DNA of 40,000 nucleotides, taken from contig NZ_CP132333.1 in NCBI RefSeq assembly GCF_030758935.1, positions 704,992 through 744,991 of the forward strand, written 5' to 3'. Both the position numbers and the translations under genes were made by a program. This DNA comes from Geothrix sp. PMB-07 (GTDB lineage Bacteria; Acidobacteriota; Holophagae; Holophagales; Holophagaceae). The notes under the pieces were generated by a model. It ran no database searches. It was not told the DNA's origin and worked only from the letters and a program-made list of their open reading frames with translations. Position 1 is the stretch's first letter. Every line of letters begins with the position of its first letter. Shown in pieces: positions 919-19,264 of this stretch.

Positions 919-1281
919 ACCCGATGACGCTGGAGCCCACCCGGAAATTCGAGATGCCTGGATTGGGTGCAACGAAAGGGATGCCGCCCGAGCGAGAACA
1001 ACGCCTGGGCTGGCCGAGCCCAAAGGCAAAGAACTGAGGCGGATTGCGCCAGTGGCGGAGTAAGGGAAGGAACGGCGGAGCCAGAATGCCACGAGAAGCT
1101 GCTGGATTCACCGGAGTATCGAGGGAGAACGGCGGCGCAGCGCGACAGCGCAAGCCCGCCATTCACGAACAGCCAGAGGCACCGAGAGGCAGAGATTCAC
1201 GATTGGCAAAGCTAGGAGGTTGAATTTGAACCCCAATTGAGAAGGACCAACCCCGGAAGACGATGGGAAAGCGCCGGGTGT
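919..1281. repeat. ORF-less paralogous cassette, copy A (363 bp); candidate ncRNA or regulatory element
   Basis: Bounded by attC cores at 912-918 and 1282-1288. Homologous over its full length to the inserts at 3851, 11574, 12046, 12517 and 13669. No reading frame is conserved among the copies. This is the most divergent copy in its 3' third. Confidence 0.85.
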
Positions 1282-3436: not shown

Positions 3437-3739
3437 TTAATGATGAAAGAGAATGAACACGGCGGGCGGCAGAAGCATTAGAAGCCAACCGAAGCAGTGG
3501 GCTGGCCTACGTGCTTTGAATGTACGCAGCAGAATGGAAACTCCAAACGCGGAGACGAGAAAGGCAAGGCCAGCTACAGCGATGCCAACCCAACCATCGA
3601 TGAAAAGACTATGCCCACTTTTTCCCTTGAGGCTTATCCCCCCTTGCACGAGGTCAAGCCAGCCGAACAATGCGAAGAATGTCGCCAGAATACCGGCGAT
3701 GACGCGTTCAGCGAGGGGATCCTGCGGAGGAAGATTCAT
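3437..3739 (-). CDS. Small hypothetical membrane protein (100 aa), integron cassette
   Basis: ATG at 3739, 3 nt from the attC core. Three hydrophobic helices are present. It fills the cassette. Confidence 0.5.
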   Translation of the reverse strand: MNLPPQDPLAERVIAGILATFFALFGWLDLVQGGISLKGKSGHSLFIDGWVGIAVAGLAFLVSAFGVSILLRTFKARRPAHCFGWLLMLLPPAVFILFHH

Positions 3740-3742
3740 GAG

Positions 3743-3850
3743 GCCTAACGAGTGAAGCTAACCGGCCCTATTGCTGCGGGACACGGGCGCTGAATTGTTC
3801 GAGGACACTAGCGCGCAGCGATAGGGTCCGAGTTGAGCGGAAGGTTAGGC
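3743..3850 (-). repeat. attC site, class 1 (108 bp)
   Basis: GCCTAAC at 3743-3749 and GTTAGGC at 3844-3850. Confidence 0.9.
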
Positions 3851-4212
3851 ACCCGATGAAGCTGAAGCCCACCCGGTTTTCGAGATGCCCGGATTGGGTG
3901 GAATGATCGGAATGCCGCCCGAGCCTGAAGGATGATCGGGGTGCCGAGCCCAAAGGCAAAGAACTGAGACGGATTGCGCCGGGGGTGAGGTGAGGGATGG
4001 AACGGCGGAGCCAGGATGCCACGAGAAGCGGCTGGATTCACTGGAGGAGTGGCGGAGAACGGCTGCGCAGCGCGACAGCGCAAGCCCGCCATTCATGGCG
4101 AGTCTGAGCTACCGGGGCGCGGCGATTCACGATTGGCGAAGGCAGGGTGCCGAATCCCGCACTCCGATTGAGAAGGATCGAACCCGGAAGACGATGGGAA
4201 AGCGCCGGGTGT
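3851..4212. repeat. ORF-less paralogous cassette, copy B (362 bp)
   Basis: Same family as copies A and C-F. It is closest to copy F in the variable segment GAATGATCGGAATGCCGCC...GATGATCGGGGT. No conserved frame. Confidence 0.85.
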
Positions 4213-11066: not shown

Positions 11067-11459
11067 TCACTTTTTCGCTTTGATTGGGTAGTGCCCGTTG
11101 ATCGGGAGTGGCTTCTTTTGGCCAGTTTCTTCTATGACGAAGATCGAGACACTGGCAGTTTGCCTATCGAGGTCAAGCACGACGCTACCCTCAAACTTGG
11201 ACCTCTCAGTGGCCGAATTGATATAGAGATTCATGTTGGCGCTGGAGTATGAATTACTCCTGTCTTTGAACTCAAAGCGGTAACTGTCTGAATCTCGATA
11301 CGGGCCGCACATCGCCCAGTGGGGGCCGCCATGGGTGTATTCCACCCAGAAGACACCGTTGCCATCTGGGTAAAAGGTTGGTTTCTTGCTTGAACAGCCT
11401 GAATTGAAGACAGTCGCCAAAAGGATTGCCATTCCTGTGATGAGCGCAGCATGTTTCAT
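11067..11459 (-). CDS. Putative lipoprotein (130 aa), integron cassette
   Basis: ATG at 11459, 5 nt from the attC core. Signal peptide AALITGMAILLATVFNSGC with a Cys at the predicted cleavage position. Confidence 0.62.
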   Translation of the reverse strand: MKHAALITGMAILLATVFNSGCSSKKPTFYPDGNGVFWVEYTHGGPHWAMCGPYRDSDSYRFEFKDRSNSYSSANMNLYINSATERSKFEGSVVLDLDRQTASVSIFVIEETGQKKPLPINGHYPIKAKK

Positions 11460-11464
11460 TGGCG

Positions 11465-11573
11465 GCCTAACGAAGGAAGCTAACCGGCCCTATTGCTGCG
11501 GGAACCAGGGAGCTGGATTGTTTGAGGACACTAGCGCGCAGCGATAGGGTCCGAGTTGAGCGGAAGGTTAGGC
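11465..11573 (-). repeat. attC site, class 1 (109 bp)
   Basis: GCCTAAC at 11465-11471 and GTTAGGC at 11567-11573. Confidence 0.9.
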
Positions 11574-11936
11574 ACCCGATGACGCTGGAACCCACCCGGT
11601 TTCCGAGATGCCCGGATTGAGTGCAGCGAATGGGATGCCGTCCGAGTGCGAAGAACGGCTGGGAAAGCCGAGCCCAAAGTCAAAGAGCTAAGGCGGATTG
11701 CGCCAGGGGTGAGGCAAGAGAAGGAACGGCGGAGCCAGGATGCCACGAGAAGCTGCTGGGTTCACCGAATGAATGGTGGAGAACGGCCGCGCAGCGCGGC
11801 AGCGCAAGCCCGCCATTCATGGCGAGCCTGAGCCACCGCGGCGCAGAGATTCGCGATTGGCAAAGCCAGAGCGCTGAACCCCGCACTCCGATTGAGAAGG
11901 ATCGAACCCGGAAGCTGATGGGAAAGCGCCGGGTGT
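11574..11936. repeat. ORF-less paralogous cassette, copy C (363 bp)
   Basis: First (leftmost) member of a run of three consecutive family members. No conserved frame, and the minus-strand frame has an in-frame stop here. Confidence 0.85.
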
Positions 11937-12045
11937 GCCTAACGAAAGAAGCTAACCGGCCCTATTGCTGCGGGGACACGGACGCTGAATTGTTTGAGGA
12001 CGCTATCGCGCAGCGATAGGGTCCGAGTTGAGCGGAAGGTTAGGC
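11937..12045 (-). repeat. attC site, class 1 (109 bp)
   Basis: GCCTAAC at 11937-11943 and GTTAGGC at 12039-12045. Confidence 0.9.
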
Positions 12046-12408
12046 ACCCGATGAAGCTGGAGCCTACTCGGACATTCGAGGCGCCCAGTCTGGGCGCAAC
12101 GGACGGGATGTCGCCCGAATGGGAAGGGCAGCTGGTTTGACCGAGCCCAAAGGCAAAGAACTGGGGTGGATTGCGCCAAGGGTGAGGCAAGGGAAGGAAC
12201 GGCGAAGCCATGTTGCCACGAGAGGCCACTGGATTCATCGAGTGAGTGGTGGAGAACGGCTGCGCAGCGCGACAGCGCAAGCCCGCCATTCATGGCGAGT
12301 CTGAGCCACCGGGGCGAAGAGATTCGCGACTGGCGAAGTCAGGGTGATAAACCCGCACTCGGATTGAGAAGGATCGAACCCGGAAGACGATGGGAAAGCG
12401 CCGGGTGT
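12046..12408. repeat. ORF-less paralogous cassette, copy D (363 bp)
   Basis: Family member. It carries a private perfect hairpin GCGCCCAGTCTGGGCGC where other copies read ATGCCCGGATTGGGTG. A 1-nt indel relative to C and E sits near 12350. Confidence 0.85.
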
Positions 12409-12516
12409 GCCTAACGAGTGAAGCTAACCGGCCCTATTGCTGCGGGACACGGGCGCTGAATTGTTTGAGGACACTAGCGCGCAGCGATAGGGTCCGAGTT
12501 GAGCGGAAGGTTAGGC
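12409..12516 (-). repeat. attC site, class 1 (108 bp)
   Basis: GCCTAAC at 12409-12415 and GTTAGGC at 12510-12516. Confidence 0.9.
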
Positions 12517-12880
12517 ACCCGATGAAGCTGGAGCCCACCCGGGCATTCGAGATGGCCGGATTGGGTACAGCGAATGGGGTGCCGACGGAGCGGGGAGAGC
12601 GGCAGGGAAAGCCGAGCCCAAAGGCAAAGAACTGAGGCGGATTGCGCCAGGGGTAAGGTGAGTGAAGGAACGGCGGAGCCAGGATGCCACGAGAAGCCGC
12701 TGGGTTCACCGGATGAGTGTTGGAGAACGGCTGCGCAGCGCGACAGCGCAAGCCCGCCATTCATGGCGAGTCTGAGCCACCGAGGCGGAGAGATTCACGA
12801 TTGGCGAAGCCAGTGTGCTGAACCCCGCACTCCGATTGAGAAGGATCGAACCCGGAAGACGATGGGAAAGCGCCGGGTGT
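12517..12880. repeat. ORF-less paralogous cassette, copy E (364 bp)
   Basis: Family member. I used it as the reference for the candidate helices described in the findings. Confidence 0.85.
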
Positions 12881-12988
12881 GCCTAACGAGAGAAGCTAAC
12901 CGGCCCTATTGCTGCGGGACACGGACGCTGAATTGTTTGAGGACACTAGCGCGCAGCGATAGGGTCCGAGTTGAGCGGAAGGTTAGGC
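12881..12988 (-). repeat. attC site, class 1 (108 bp)
   Basis: GCCTAAC at 12881-12887 and GTTAGGC at 12982-12988. Confidence 0.9.
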
Positions 12989-12997
12989 CTGCCAGGT

Positions 12998-13321
12998 TCA
13001 TTGTTGGGCCTGCTGAACACGAATCCAAATGGAAGAGGTCATGCCTTGCTGCCACACACCACGCAACAACTCCTTAAACCTAAGGTTATTCTTGGCCTCA
13101 TACTCGACCATGCTGATGATCTGGTCGCCATGGATAGAGAGTAGATCTTCTAACGGCCCAGCGGCCAGCATTGAGCGACGTTTCTCGGAATATGGCCGAG
13201 AGTTCGCCTCGAGGATGAATCGCCATGCTGAGAGGGGCTCATCTCTGATGAGGTCACGAAGCCGGTCTTCTGCAGCAAAGTGATCATGCAGAGAAGGATC
13301 TTCTGAGTCCGGATCTGGCAT
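12998..13321 (-). CDS. Hypothetical acidic protein (107 aa from Met at 13321); second gene of a two-gene cassette
   Basis: The ORF track starts at 13414 and would overlap the upstream gene by 80 nt. The internal ATG at 13321 lies 13 nt after the upstream stop. No family recognised. Confidence 0.5.
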   Translation of the reverse strand: MPDPDSEDPSLHDHFAAEDRLRDLIRDEPLSAWRFILEANSRPYSEKRRSMLAAGPLEDLLSIHGDQIISMVEYEAKNNLRFKELLRGVWQQGMTSSIWIRVQQAQQ

Positions 13322-13334
13322 AGGCGCGCCAATG

Positions 13335-13544
13335 TCATCGAGGTTCGAACCAATGAATGAAACCGCATTTCGCGCAGATAATGCAGTATTCAGTTGGCCC
13401 GGTCCATTCGACACCTAGCATTGTTGAACCCATTGTATGAAGCTGGGCTTCGCGTTTGAAAAACAAATCATGTTTACAAAATAGACAAACAATCGGACGG
13501 TCGTTGATTCTGTATTGCTGTGCTTCACGATGGAACAGGCTCAT
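13335..13544 (-). CDS. Small zinc-ribbon-like protein (69 aa; CxxC ... CxxCG); first gene of a two-gene cassette
   Basis: ATG at 13544 is preceded by CAGGAG. Cys pairs CLFC and CAKCG are spaced as in zinc ribbons. Confidence 0.5.
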   Translation of the reverse strand: MSLFHREAQQYRINDRPIVCLFCKHDLFFKREAQLHTMGSTMLGVEWTGPTEYCIICAKCGFIHWFEPR

Positions 13545-13559
13545 AGTGGCTCCTGTAGC

Positions 13560-13668
13560 GCCTAACGAGAGAAGCTAACCGGCCCTATTGCTGCGGGGAC
13601 CTGGCAGCTGAATTGTTTGAGGACTCTATCGCGCAGCGATAGGGTCCGAGTTGAGCGGAAGGTTAGGC
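13560..13668 (-). repeat. attC site, class 1 (109 bp)
   Basis: GCCTAAC at 13560-13566 and GTTAGGC at 13662-13668. This is the attC of the first cassette. Confidence 0.9.
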
Positions 13669-14029
13669 ACCCGATGAAGTTGAATCCCACTCGGGCGTTG
13701 AGATGCCCGGATTGGGTGGAACGAGCGGAATGCCGCCGGAACATGAAGGATGATCGGGGTGCCGAGCCCAAAGGCAAAGAACTGAGGCGGATTGCGCCAG
13801 GGGTGAGGCGAGGGACGGAACGGCGGAGCCAGGATGCCACGAGAAGCCGCTGGATTCACTGGTGGAGTGGCGGAGAACGGATGCGAAGCGCGACAGCGCA
13901 AGCCCGCCATTCATGGCGGATGTGGGTTACCAGGGTGAGGAGATTCGCGACTGGCGAAGCCTGGGCGCTGAACCCGCACTCCGATTGAGAAGGATCGAAC
14001 CCGGAAGACGATGGGAATGCGCCGGGTGT
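13669..14029. repeat. ORF-less paralogous cassette, copy F (361 bp); first, attI-proximal cassette
   Basis: Lies directly between the attI core (14030-14036) and the first attC. Full-length family member, closest to copy B. Confidence 0.85.
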
Positions 14030-14110
14030 GCCTAACGAGAATTGGACGGCGGTGGGTTGGGGGTGGGAGGTTCGTCTAGTTTGGGGGGAGGCCGTTGGGG
14101 GAGGGTTGGT
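14030..14110 (-). other. attI recombination region (core GTTAGGC read on the minus strand at 14036-14030)
   Basis: This is the last core site before intI. The sequence to its right is unique, has no attC scaffold and is G-rich (GGTGGGTTGGGGGTGGGAGG...TTTGGGGGGAGG...TTGGGGGAGGG). The extent of attI is estimated. Confidence 0.6.
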
Positions 14111-14144
14111 ATTTGATGGGGAATGGACGAACTTGGCTGAGGGC

Positions 14145-14172
14145 TTGACGAGCGAAAAAAAAGCGATAGATT
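14145..14172 (+). promoter_or_regulatory. Candidate intI promoter (TTGACG - 16 nt - TAGATT)
   Basis: A -35-like TTGACG at 14145-14150 and a -10-like TAGATT at 14167-14172, about 83 nt upstream of the intI start. Based on sequence pattern only. Confidence 0.35.
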
Positions 14173-14254
14173 GAGCCGTGGCGCAGTGTTCATGCTTGGA
14201 GGTCGGTCCCAAGGGTAGCGTAATGGGCGAACCCCTGGGGGGAGGAGTATTCCC

Positions 14255-15265
14255 GTGAATGAAGGGTTTAGGCAGACCGGTGAGGGGCGCACGGAGGAGG
14301 AAGGGCGGCCTCCGAAACTGCTGGATCAGCTGCGCACGGCGCTCCGGGTTCGGCGCTACAGCCTCCGCACGGAGGATGCCTACGTGGACTGGGTGAAGCG
14401 CTTCATCCTGTTCTCCGGCACGCGCCATCCGAGCGCCCTGGGGGCGGTGGACGTGGGGGCCTTCCTCAACCACCTGGCGGTGGATCGGCGGGTGTCGGGA
14501 TCGACGCAGAATCAGGCGAAGTCGGCTCTGCTTTTCCTCTACCGGGAGCTGCTGGGGGTGGAGCTGCCCTGGCTTTCGGAGGTGGTGCAGGCCAAGCGCC
14601 CCCCGCGCCTGCCGGTGGTGCTCACCCCTGGCGAGGTGCGGATCCTGCTGGATCAGCTGGAGGGCACCATGGGTCTGGTGGTTCAGGTGCTCTACGGGAC
14701 GGGCATGCGGTTGATGGAGGGGCTGCGCCTGCGGGTGAAGGACGTGGAGTTCGAGCGGCGGGAAATCACGATTCGGGACGGGAAGGGCGGAAAGGATCGC
14801 GTCACCATGCTGCCGGACCGCCTGGTCGCGCCGCTGCGGGCGCATCTGGAGCGGGTGCGGGTGCTGCACGAGCGCGATCTGGCCGAGGGGTTCGGCGAGG
14901 TGTTCCTGCCGGATGCGCTGGCGGACAAGTTCAAGGCGGCGCCCCGGTCCTGGGGCTGGCAGTGGGTGTTCCCCTCGAACCTGCGGTCGGTGGACCCCCG
15001 CTCGGGCCTCACCCGCCGCCACCACCTCCAGCCGGAGAGCGTGCAGAAGGCCGTCCGCCTGGCGGCGCGGGCGGGGGAGCTGGTGAAGCCGGTGACCCCC
15101 CATGTGCTACGCCACAGCTTTGCGACCCACCTGCTGGCGGGGGGGCACGACATCCGCACGGTGCAGGAGCTGCTGGGGCACAAGGATGTGGCCACGACCA
15201 TGATCTACACGCACGTGCTCAATCGGGGCGGGCGCGGCGTGGCGAGCCCGCTGGACGGGCTCTGA
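14255..15265 (+). CDS. intI: Integron integrase IntI (tyrosine recombinase, 336 aa)
   Basis: [32 protein letters not shown] at the N-terminus. The integron-specific insertion [38 protein letters not shown] is present. Catalytic motifs are present: [26 protein letters not shown] and [17 protein letters not shown] start with GGAGGAG 7 nt upstream. Confidence 0.95.
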
Positions 15266-15660: not shown

Positions 15661-16032
15661 ATGCATCTTTCGGATCGGGCGTTCCGCAGGCTGGTGGACG
15701 AGGCGCTGGGGCGGATCCCGGAGGCGTTCCGGCCCTACCTGGACGGGGTGCCGGTGGTCATCGAGGATTGGGCTCCGGACGCGCTTCTGGATGAGATGGG
15801 CGTTCCCGAGGACGACACCCTGTACGGGCTGTATTCGGGCCATGCCCTCACCGAGGGGCCGCCGGAGCCCGGGGACCTGCCCCCTCGCATCACGATCTTC
15901 CGAGGGCCGCTGCTGGAGGACTGCGTGGACGAGGAGGACTTGCGGGAGGAGATCGCCACCACGGTCATCCATGAGATCGCCCATCACTTCGGCATCGATG
16001 AGGCAAGGCTGGAAGAACTGGGCTGGGGTTGA
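15661..16032 (+). CDS. Zincin-like metallopeptidase family protein (DUF1025/Zincin_1-like, 123 aa)
   Basis: FRRLVDEALGRIPEAF...VVIEDWAP...LYGLYSG...IHEIAHHFGIDE, an HExxH motif in the typical family context. Confidence 0.78.
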   Translation: MHLSDRAFRRLVDEALGRIPEAFRPYLDGVPVVIEDWAPDALLDEMGVPEDDTLYGLYSGHALTEGPPEPGDLPPRITIFRGPLLEDCVDEEDLREEIATTVIHEIAHHFGIDEARLEELGWG

Positions 16033-16060: not shown

Positions 16061-16272
16061 GCCACGGATGAACACAGATGGACACGGATGGATGGAACCA
16101 GCCTCCTAGGCTATGAGGTGATACCAGGTTGCGTTCAATCCAATAGAACAGAACTTTCACCACCAAGGCGCCTTGGCGGTGTTCCTTATCCTTTGAATTC
16201 AAATCCGTATGAGGCGTCGGATTGCCGCTGGGCCGAGCCTGTTATCTGTGTTCATCCGTGTTCATCCGTGGC
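16061..16272. repeat. Intergenic hairpin repeat, 10-bp-phased CACGGAT/CACAGAT subfamily, long copy (212 bp)
   Basis: The left arm GCCACGGATGAACACAGATGGACACGGATGGATGGAACC (16061-16099) is complementary to the right arm ATCTGTGTTCATCCGTGTTCATCCGTGGC (16244-16272). The interior contains the perfect palindrome CCAAGGCGCCTTGG. Confidence 0.8.
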
Positions 16273-19176: not shown

Positions 19177-19264
19177 GCCACAGATGAACACAGATGCACA
19201 CGGATAAATGGAACCTGGCTTCTCGCCTATCTTGCATCTGTGCTCATCCGTGTCCATCTGTGGC
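19177..19264. repeat. Intergenic hairpin repeat, 10-bp-phased subfamily, short copy (88 bp)
   Basis: GCCACAGATGAACACAGATGCACACGGAT (left) against CATCTGTGCTCATCCGTGTCCATCTGTGGC (right). The loop begins AAATGGAACC, as in the 16061 copy. Confidence 0.8.

Follow-up and report, generated by a model that had tools for sequence, protein, structure and literature searches.

Non-coding cassettes account for 6-49% of Vibrio superintegrons. Whether they are selfish DNA, promoters or RNAs has been under debate since 2006. A non-coding RNA is also known from an integron of Xanthomonas, where sRNA-Xcc1 is an integron-encoded trans-acting small RNA. Here we describe a family of gene-less cassettes in a chromosomal integron of Geothrix sp. 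PMB-07 (Acidobacteriota; NZ_CP132333.1), analysed in a stretch of 40,000 nucleotides (positions 704992-744991, G000:C1 numbering) that we refer to as the window. The window contains the integron integrase gene intI, the recombination site attI and six copies of the cassette (A to F), one of which is the first cassette at attI.

The closest described elements are the paralogous non-coding cassettes of Vibrio (Boucher et al. 2006, PMC1382264). These cassettes have their own attC and no open reading frame (ORF), are conserved over their full length and have homologues only in close relatives, with 6 copies per array in Vibrio sp. DAT722 and 45 and 34 copies in two V. vulnificus strains. The authors proposed purifying selection together with gene conversion, and a role that is either selfish or regulatory (promoter or RNA). 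The Geothrix family resembles them in its own attC, the lack of an ORF, multiple copies, conservation over the whole length and restriction to close relatives. However, it occurs in Acidobacteriota and its GC-rich sequence is unrelated. Two of its features, namely being the only cassette common to the compared arrays and the recurrent occupation of the first slot, are not mentioned for Vibrio in the passages of PMC1382264 consulted. We regard the Geothrix family as a known kind of element, the paralogous non-coding cassettes, in a distant phylum, to which it adds these two features and clear mosaicism.

Gene-less cassettes that carry promoters have also been described (Blanco et al. 2024, PMC11014356; Tansirichaiya et al. 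2019, PMC6557892), with inserts of 335-515 bp compared with ~362 bp in Geothrix. A regulatory role for neighbouring cassettes was shown for them, whereas the Geothrix insert shows no consensus promoter in the copies scanned, is conserved throughout and occurs in tandem. The likeness to sRNA-Xcc1 lies in a non-coding RNA on an integron cassette, as predicted here for Geothrix, but the Geothrix element has no Rfam match, is much longer and is present in multiple copies. Our literature search found no paper on Geothrix integrons.

Whole-cassette copying and mosaic alleles

The six homologous inserts in the window are ~362 bp long, with a mean column identity of 87%, and each one has a complete class-1 attC of ~109 bp behind it in the cassette direction, on the minus strand. 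An earlier reading of the window (the original prediction) had placed copies A to F and proposed that the amplified unit was a whole cassette with its own attC, multiplied by the integrase IntI rather than by replication slippage. The coordinates of all six copies were recovered by repeat finding and alignment. Copy C and a copy at G000:C1:698882-699250, which lies 17.7 kb deeper in the array and to the left of the window, are 99.7% identical in the body and agree in their attC loop variant; beyond the GTTAGGC core they match for only about three more bases. Identity that ends at the core points to whole-cassette, site-specific mobilisation, as expected of IntI, and not to segmental duplication or slippage. 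With these core-exact bounds and with members in three arrays, the cassette appears to be moved and copied whole by the integron integrase machinery, a part of our reading that we regard as established at the sequence level.

The tandem neighbours are much less alike, with identities of 83.0% between C and D, 84.9% between D and E and 89.5% between C and E. The nearest relative of copy E is a copy in array 2 (91.4%), and those of copy F are a copy in array 3 (89.9%) and copy B (89.7%). Copy D has no relative above 85.7%, and copy A is the most divergent of the genome's own copies (78-84%). With 83-89.5% identity among C, D and E, and with the nearest relative of each lying elsewhere, they are not recent products of slippage or of duplication from one another. 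IntI-mediated amplification as originally proposed is largely supported by the core-bounded pair, by this divergence within the tandem run and by the copies in two further arrays. Alternatively, the run of three could stem from unequal homologous recombination, with near-identical attC sites and conserved blocks as the points of exchange: identity between the attC sites of copies D and E reaches 94.7%, and exchange among the copies clearly occurs. However, fresh crossing-over predicts near-identical neighbours, not diverged ones that each have their closest relative elsewhere, and it leaves the occupation of slot 1, the copies in other arrays and the core-exact boundary of the 99.7% pair unexplained. 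We consider this origin of the run decidedly improbable.

Copy number might also have been inflated or collapsed during assembly, given that repeats of ~470 bp are hard to place by short reads and that arrays stop at contig ends in several related drafts. Against this, the genome is a single contig of 4.24 Mb, the same attI layout is found in independent assemblies, and the copies differ by 10-17%, the sole exception being the pair that lies 17.7 kb apart with different neighbours. In agreement with the original prediction, which had made the same point from the divergence of adjacent copies, an assembly artefact is extremely unlikely.

The relationships among copies change along their length. 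In a sliding-window comparison, the array-2 copy at 1208295 has zero to two differences from copy C over positions 1-120, from B over 121-210 and from F over 181-270, and then diverges, while copy E matches B over 1-60 and the copy at 1203138 over 241-360. This switching of partners implies that blocks are swapped by homologous recombination or gene conversion, including between arrays, and such exchange evidently acts alongside IntI. The idea that several diverged alleles are maintained was right in that the copies differ strongly, but not in the sense of independent lineages: the alleles are best read as one recombining pool of mosaics.

Integrase, attI and the first cassette slot

The intI product is a true integron-type tyrosine recombinase by its TIGR02249 profile match (Table 1), and its orthologues in three related genomes (G012, G108 and G005) are 83-85% identical. 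The cassette array runs leftward from intI on the minus strand, past the window edge, and ~31 attC sites with GCCTAAC/GTTAGGC cores were detected in it. The attI crossover core GTTAGGC lies on the minus strand at 14029-14035 and is abutted by copy F, and the attI sequence is conserved in an alignment of four genomes from AATTGGACGG onwards. In G005, which has a different first cassette, the alignment diverges precisely at the ..CCTAAC junction. The locus is a complete integron, with an integrase, an attC array divergent from intI and a GTT-core junction to attI. Recombination by IntI at these sites is indicated indirectly by the core-exact duplicate pair and by the differing first cassette at the attI junction of G005.

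Copy F is the first cassette at attI, as had been proposed. Likewise, E, D and C are consecutive, one two-gene cassette separates F from E, and copies B and A lie deeper in the array. The family occupies four of the first five slots (1, 3, 4 and 5) compared with seven of the ~31 cassettes of the array (hypergeometric p ~0.005, calculated post hoc), and on this count its placement near attI is non-random.

The test set for the original prediction, enrichment near attI as opposed to random positions in related genomes, also supports it. In G012, the only family copy adjoins attI and intI as the first cassette, ahead of at least 10 others, and the family copy of G108, which belongs to another genus, is likewise the first cassette at attI, on a short contig. 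With the host genome, this makes three genomes in which the family takes the first slot. The copy of G005 is fifth from attI. G003 has its copies in an array without an integrase, where they rank third, fifth (a partial one) and eighth when counted from the upstream end. The copies of G023 and G010 are at least third and at least seventh, respectively, on contigs that end before attI. At the DNA level, the arrays of G012 and G005 have no cassette in common with the host besides the family. Furthermore, copy F is only 49% identical to the slot-1 copy of G012 and 66% identical to that of G108, while the corresponding IntI identities are 85% and 84%. Slot-1 copies from different family lineages, next to integrases that are 84-85% identical, were not simply inherited in place; the first slot has been filled on more than one occasion, whether through insertion or through selection. 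The bias could reflect a high insertion rate or selection for expression.

A candidate intI promoter (PintI, TTGACG-16-TAGATT) was found by promoter scan at 14145-14172 on the plus strand. It overlaps the block GCGAAAAAAAAGCGATAGATT (14145-14185 region), which is conserved in four genomes. No platform promoter in the cassette direction was found near attI by a consensus scan of the part up to 14400. The two ORFs of the slot-2 cassette overlap on the minus strand and encode a 69-aa product without a family match (13335-13544) and a 138-aa DUF6869 protein (12998-13414; PF21746, 91 bits); no internal attC was found in this cassette (12987-13551).

Table 1 Features of the intI-linked integron (window positions) and the three attC arrays of the genome (genome positions)
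Feature	Position	Strand	attC	Evidence or remarks
intI, integron integrase	14255-15265	+		TIGR02249, 453.5 bits (cut-off 265); PF00589 and PF13495; divergent from the cassettes
attI region and intI leader	14030-14254			Four-genome alignment; promoter scan
Copy F, gene-less insert, slot 1 at attI	13669-14029	-	13552-13666	Alignment
attC of copy F, class 1	13552-13666	-		Repeat family D2; attC profile, 122.8 bits
Slot 2, two-gene cassette	12987-13551	-	12872-12986	
Copy E, slot 3	12517-12880	-	12400-12514	
Copy D, slot 4	12046-12408	-	11929-12043	
Copy C, slot 5	11574-11936	-	11457-11571	
Copy B, ~slot 18	3851-4212	-	3734-3848	
Copy A, ~slot 22	919-1281	-	802-916	
Array 1, intI-linked	692.8-719.0 kb			7 family copies
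Array 2	1.195-1.217 Mb		~30 sites, 1195441-1216765	3 family copies; no integrase nearby, CALIN-type
Array 3, inverted	2.678-2.687 Mb		~18 sites, 2677852-2687471	1 full and a partial family copy; no integrase nearby, CALIN-type

Just downstream of intI, a gene at 15661-16032 on the plus strand encodes a Zincin_1 (PF06262) metallopeptidase-like protein. Two intergenic repeats of repeat family D7 (16061-16114 and 19177-19230), which consist of GATGAACACAGATGGACACGGATGG-type units, are 83% alike.

Distribution and non-coding nature of the family

The genome of Geothrix sp. PMB-07 contains 11 full copies of the family and one 5'-truncated copy, distributed over three attC arrays, two of which are of the type known as clusters of attC sites lacking integron-integrases (CALIN; Table 1). 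A second integron-integrase paralogue at G000:C1:166051-166995 is 68% identical to the IntI of the window over 315 aa, and no class-1 attC matches were found near it. By DNA search, the family was matched in 10 of 133 Holophagaceae genomes, comprising its own genome, 8 of 61 genomes of other Geothrix species and one genome of another genus. No match came from the 24 genomes of the other two families of the class, searched at the DNA level and with a core-motif pattern.

We assembled 26 non-redundant members from this genome, ten related genomes and three metagenome contigs, of which 24 were used in the coding test. No reading frame is open in all 24 members, and four of them (the G108, G012, mg034 and G003b copies) have stops in all six frames. 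Column entropy is flat over the three codon phases, without three-base periodicity, and copies differ by 1-nt indels. A protein-coding insert is ruled out on these grounds, and the family is judged to encode no protein.

Along the insert, invariant blocks of 10-20 nt alternate with variable blocks, and the invariant blocks are kept across species and genera. On the cassette-sense strand they include TCCTTCTCAAT, TGAATGGC..TTGCGC, TGGCGCAATCC, GTTCTTTGCCTTTGGGCTCG, TCGGCAT and CTCGGGTGGGCT. We read this pattern of conservation as purifying selection.

The six window copies, the other full-length copies examined in this genome and nearly all copies in relatives form a unit of their own with core sites and attC. 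The exceptions are one array-2 copy with an atypical attC 3' end and the copies of G036 and G072, which have no class-1 attC. These last two are degenerate members (L085:5865-6206 in G036 and L084:5980-6313 in G072). The G036 element lies directly upstream of a codirectional gene whose product begins MARYVAFLRGVSPMNAKM and looks DUF1697-like by eye, and in G072 an attC of a different class (GCCGAAC...GTTAGAC) comes after the element.

At G000:C1:2677698-2677852, immediately upstream of the first attC site detected in array 3, unrelated sequence of lower GC content is joined to the 3' module of the family, which extends from TTGGCGCAATCC to the end. Comparable copies, partial or limited to the 3' part, are present in G003 (L030:1552-1757) and on a metagenome contig (L034:1147-1299). 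The 3' part of the insert may be a separable module. In addition, CTTGAGAAGGAGAACGCCCAGCTCAAGCGCCTTCTG is present in ten genome copies (G000:C1:698012, 703078, 1212830 and seven more), three of them inside cassette arrays. It probably derives from an IS3-type transposase gene, suggesting that insertion sequences have landed in cassette arrays.

A candidate cassette-sense RNA

Non-coding inserts may serve as promoters, as RNAs or only themselves. We rank a cassette-sense RNA first among these functions, followed by a promoter cassette or a selfish cassette.

As a promoter or another cis-regulatory element, the insert would drive the cassettes downstream, and the scattered copies would keep distant ones expressed. 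Most of the 29 gene-less Vibrio cassettes tested show sense-strand promoter activity, although such promoters could not be recognised in silico (PMC11014356), and ORF-less cassettes from oral metagenomes act as promoters (PMC6557892). The scatter of copies through three arrays agrees with such a role, and an internal promoter would be useful where the consensus scan found no platform promoter on the cassette strand near attI. However, no sigma-70-like site was found in any of the four copies scanned. The insert is conserved over all 362 bp in many separate blocks, far beyond what a promoter needs, and three tandem copies without an intervening gene would be unexplained. Moreover, the activity in Vibrio is tied to AT-richness, whereas the Geothrix insert is GC-rich. 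We consider a promoter role unlikely. Checks for sigma-54-like and extracytoplasmic function (ECF)-like sites, made by eye, were unconvincing as well.

Alternatively, the cassette might bring the host no benefit at all, its conserved DNA aiding only its own excision and re-insertion or the survival of the excised circle, with gene conversion homogenising the copies. A selfish nature was proposed for the paralogous Vibrio cassettes by Boucher et al. (PMC1382264). It would fit the highest copy number among the cassettes here, the attI bias, the persistence of the family while all other cassettes turn over and its limitation to one genus and close relatives. The mosaic copies show active gene conversion, and the two ends of the cassette are inverted repeats of each other, ACACCCG and CGGGTG, which lengthens the pairing of the core. 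Nevertheless, invariant blocks are common to genomes whose copies are otherwise only 49-66% alike, which is beyond the reach of gene conversion within a genome. The attC of the family belongs to the ordinary majority class of the array, giving it no obvious recombination advantage, and one-sided changes in helices fit the top strand or an RNA rather than the recombinogenic bottom strand. A purely selfish cassette seems doubtful to us.

We infer, with moderate to weak confidence, that the insert functions as a non-coding RNA in the cassette sense. Our best guess is that transcription would follow the cassette direction and, for a cassette in slot 1, start from the platform promoter; such an RNA could affect translation or the expression of the array. 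The candidate fold, tested on a 24-sequence alignment, has four parts. The cassette ends would form a closing stem (GGCAC.CC/GG.GUGCC), in which one clade has switched from A-U to G-C. A hairpin UUCGAU...AUCGGA would display the invariant loop CCUUCUCA, and its variation is nearly all C/U opposite G or A/G opposite U. A third element, the helix GAAUGGCGG/CCGCCGUUC, has compensatory changes in both the G003/G012 clade and G072. Finally, the invariant blocks UUGCGCU and GGCGCAA are complementary, and their long-range pairing would make a pseudoknot with this helix. In the proposed helices 87% of cells pair, compared with at most 46% when partners were slid, and their covariation score was reached by only 7 of 500 shuffles. 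On the cassette-sense strand, G-U exceptions outnumber A-C exceptions by 142 to 35 (42 to 2 in the CCUUCUCA hairpin), in a strand test that is biased because the counted helices were chosen with G-U allowed. Overall, the structural evidence for a cassette-sense RNA is modest.

Taken as a whole, our best explanation, which we put forward tentatively as quite possible but short of probable, is that of a mobile gene-less family in the chromosomal integrons of Geothrix and close relatives, each unit consisting of a ~362-bp non-coding insert and a 109-bp attC. Its members would have been inserted repeatedly at attI, leaving one in slot 1 and a run of three presumably older insertions just behind it. 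The copies then trade blocks by homologous recombination or gene conversion and persist as a mosaic allele pool rather than as clean duplicates, and the insert would act as the candidate RNA.

Apart from the bias of the strand test, several points weigh against this explanation. The first-slot p-value is post hoc and the related genomes are not independent; the attI bias itself could reflect positional selection rather than insertion rate. Folding energies are barely below those of shuffled sequences (mean z -0.8 sense and -1.1 antisense), and RNAalifold folds differ between clades. A strand-symmetric helix search gave a G-U to A-C ratio of 42:28, near the base-composition expectation, without a clear strand signal. 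With structure included, a covariance model of the central third scored held-out clades no better than one based on sequence alone, and the mg042/G013/mg036 clade worse. In addition, no Rfam 15 model, including those for group II introns, small RNAs and riboswitches, matched at gathering score over the whole window, and at E up to 10 the region 11400-14300 gave only two chance-level snoRNA matches.

Several specific candidates were rejected. A large stable fold was discarded because of the weak z-scores on both strands and the disagreement of clade-wise alifold structures, and a known RNA family, group II intron or riboswitch because of the lack of an Rfam match. A giant attC-like hairpin is excluded by the reversed cores of the end stem (GTTRRRY...RYYYAAC) and by an interior without a long palindrome. 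The antisense strand might have been a sponge for CsrA, which is present, but its ~10 GGA motifs (counted by hand) equal the base-composition estimate. A decoy for integrase or regulator sites, which would resemble the attI-intI region, was dismissed because the local alignment score was no better than that of shuffled sequence. No plausible trans target emerged when the genome was searched with the complement of the invariant loop and the variable blocks: all matches were either at chance level or within coding sequence.

A more specific and speculative possibility, to which we give little credence, is that the family is an undescribed integron-borne regulatory RNA and the single 'core' cassette of Geothrix integrons, kept or re-installed in a promoter-proximal position for the service of its transcript to the array. 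Such an RNA would combine the closing stem formed by the cassette ends with C/U-rich loops resembling an anti-Shine-Dalgarno sequence (CCUUCUCA, UCUCCU and CCUCC). Either the array or the integrase might be under its control, at the level of translation or expression; alternatively, the RNA might promote its own re-insertion at attI.

Implications for integrons of Acidobacteriota

The analysis documents large chromosomal integrons and two integrase-less arrays in Acidobacteriota, and the Geothrix family is a second, phylogenetically remote case of non-coding paralogous cassettes. If its status as the only common cassette and its recurrence in the first slot, in different family lineages, hold, either this cassette would be far more mobile than neighbours that have the same attC, or a non-coding function would be under selection where the array is expressed best.

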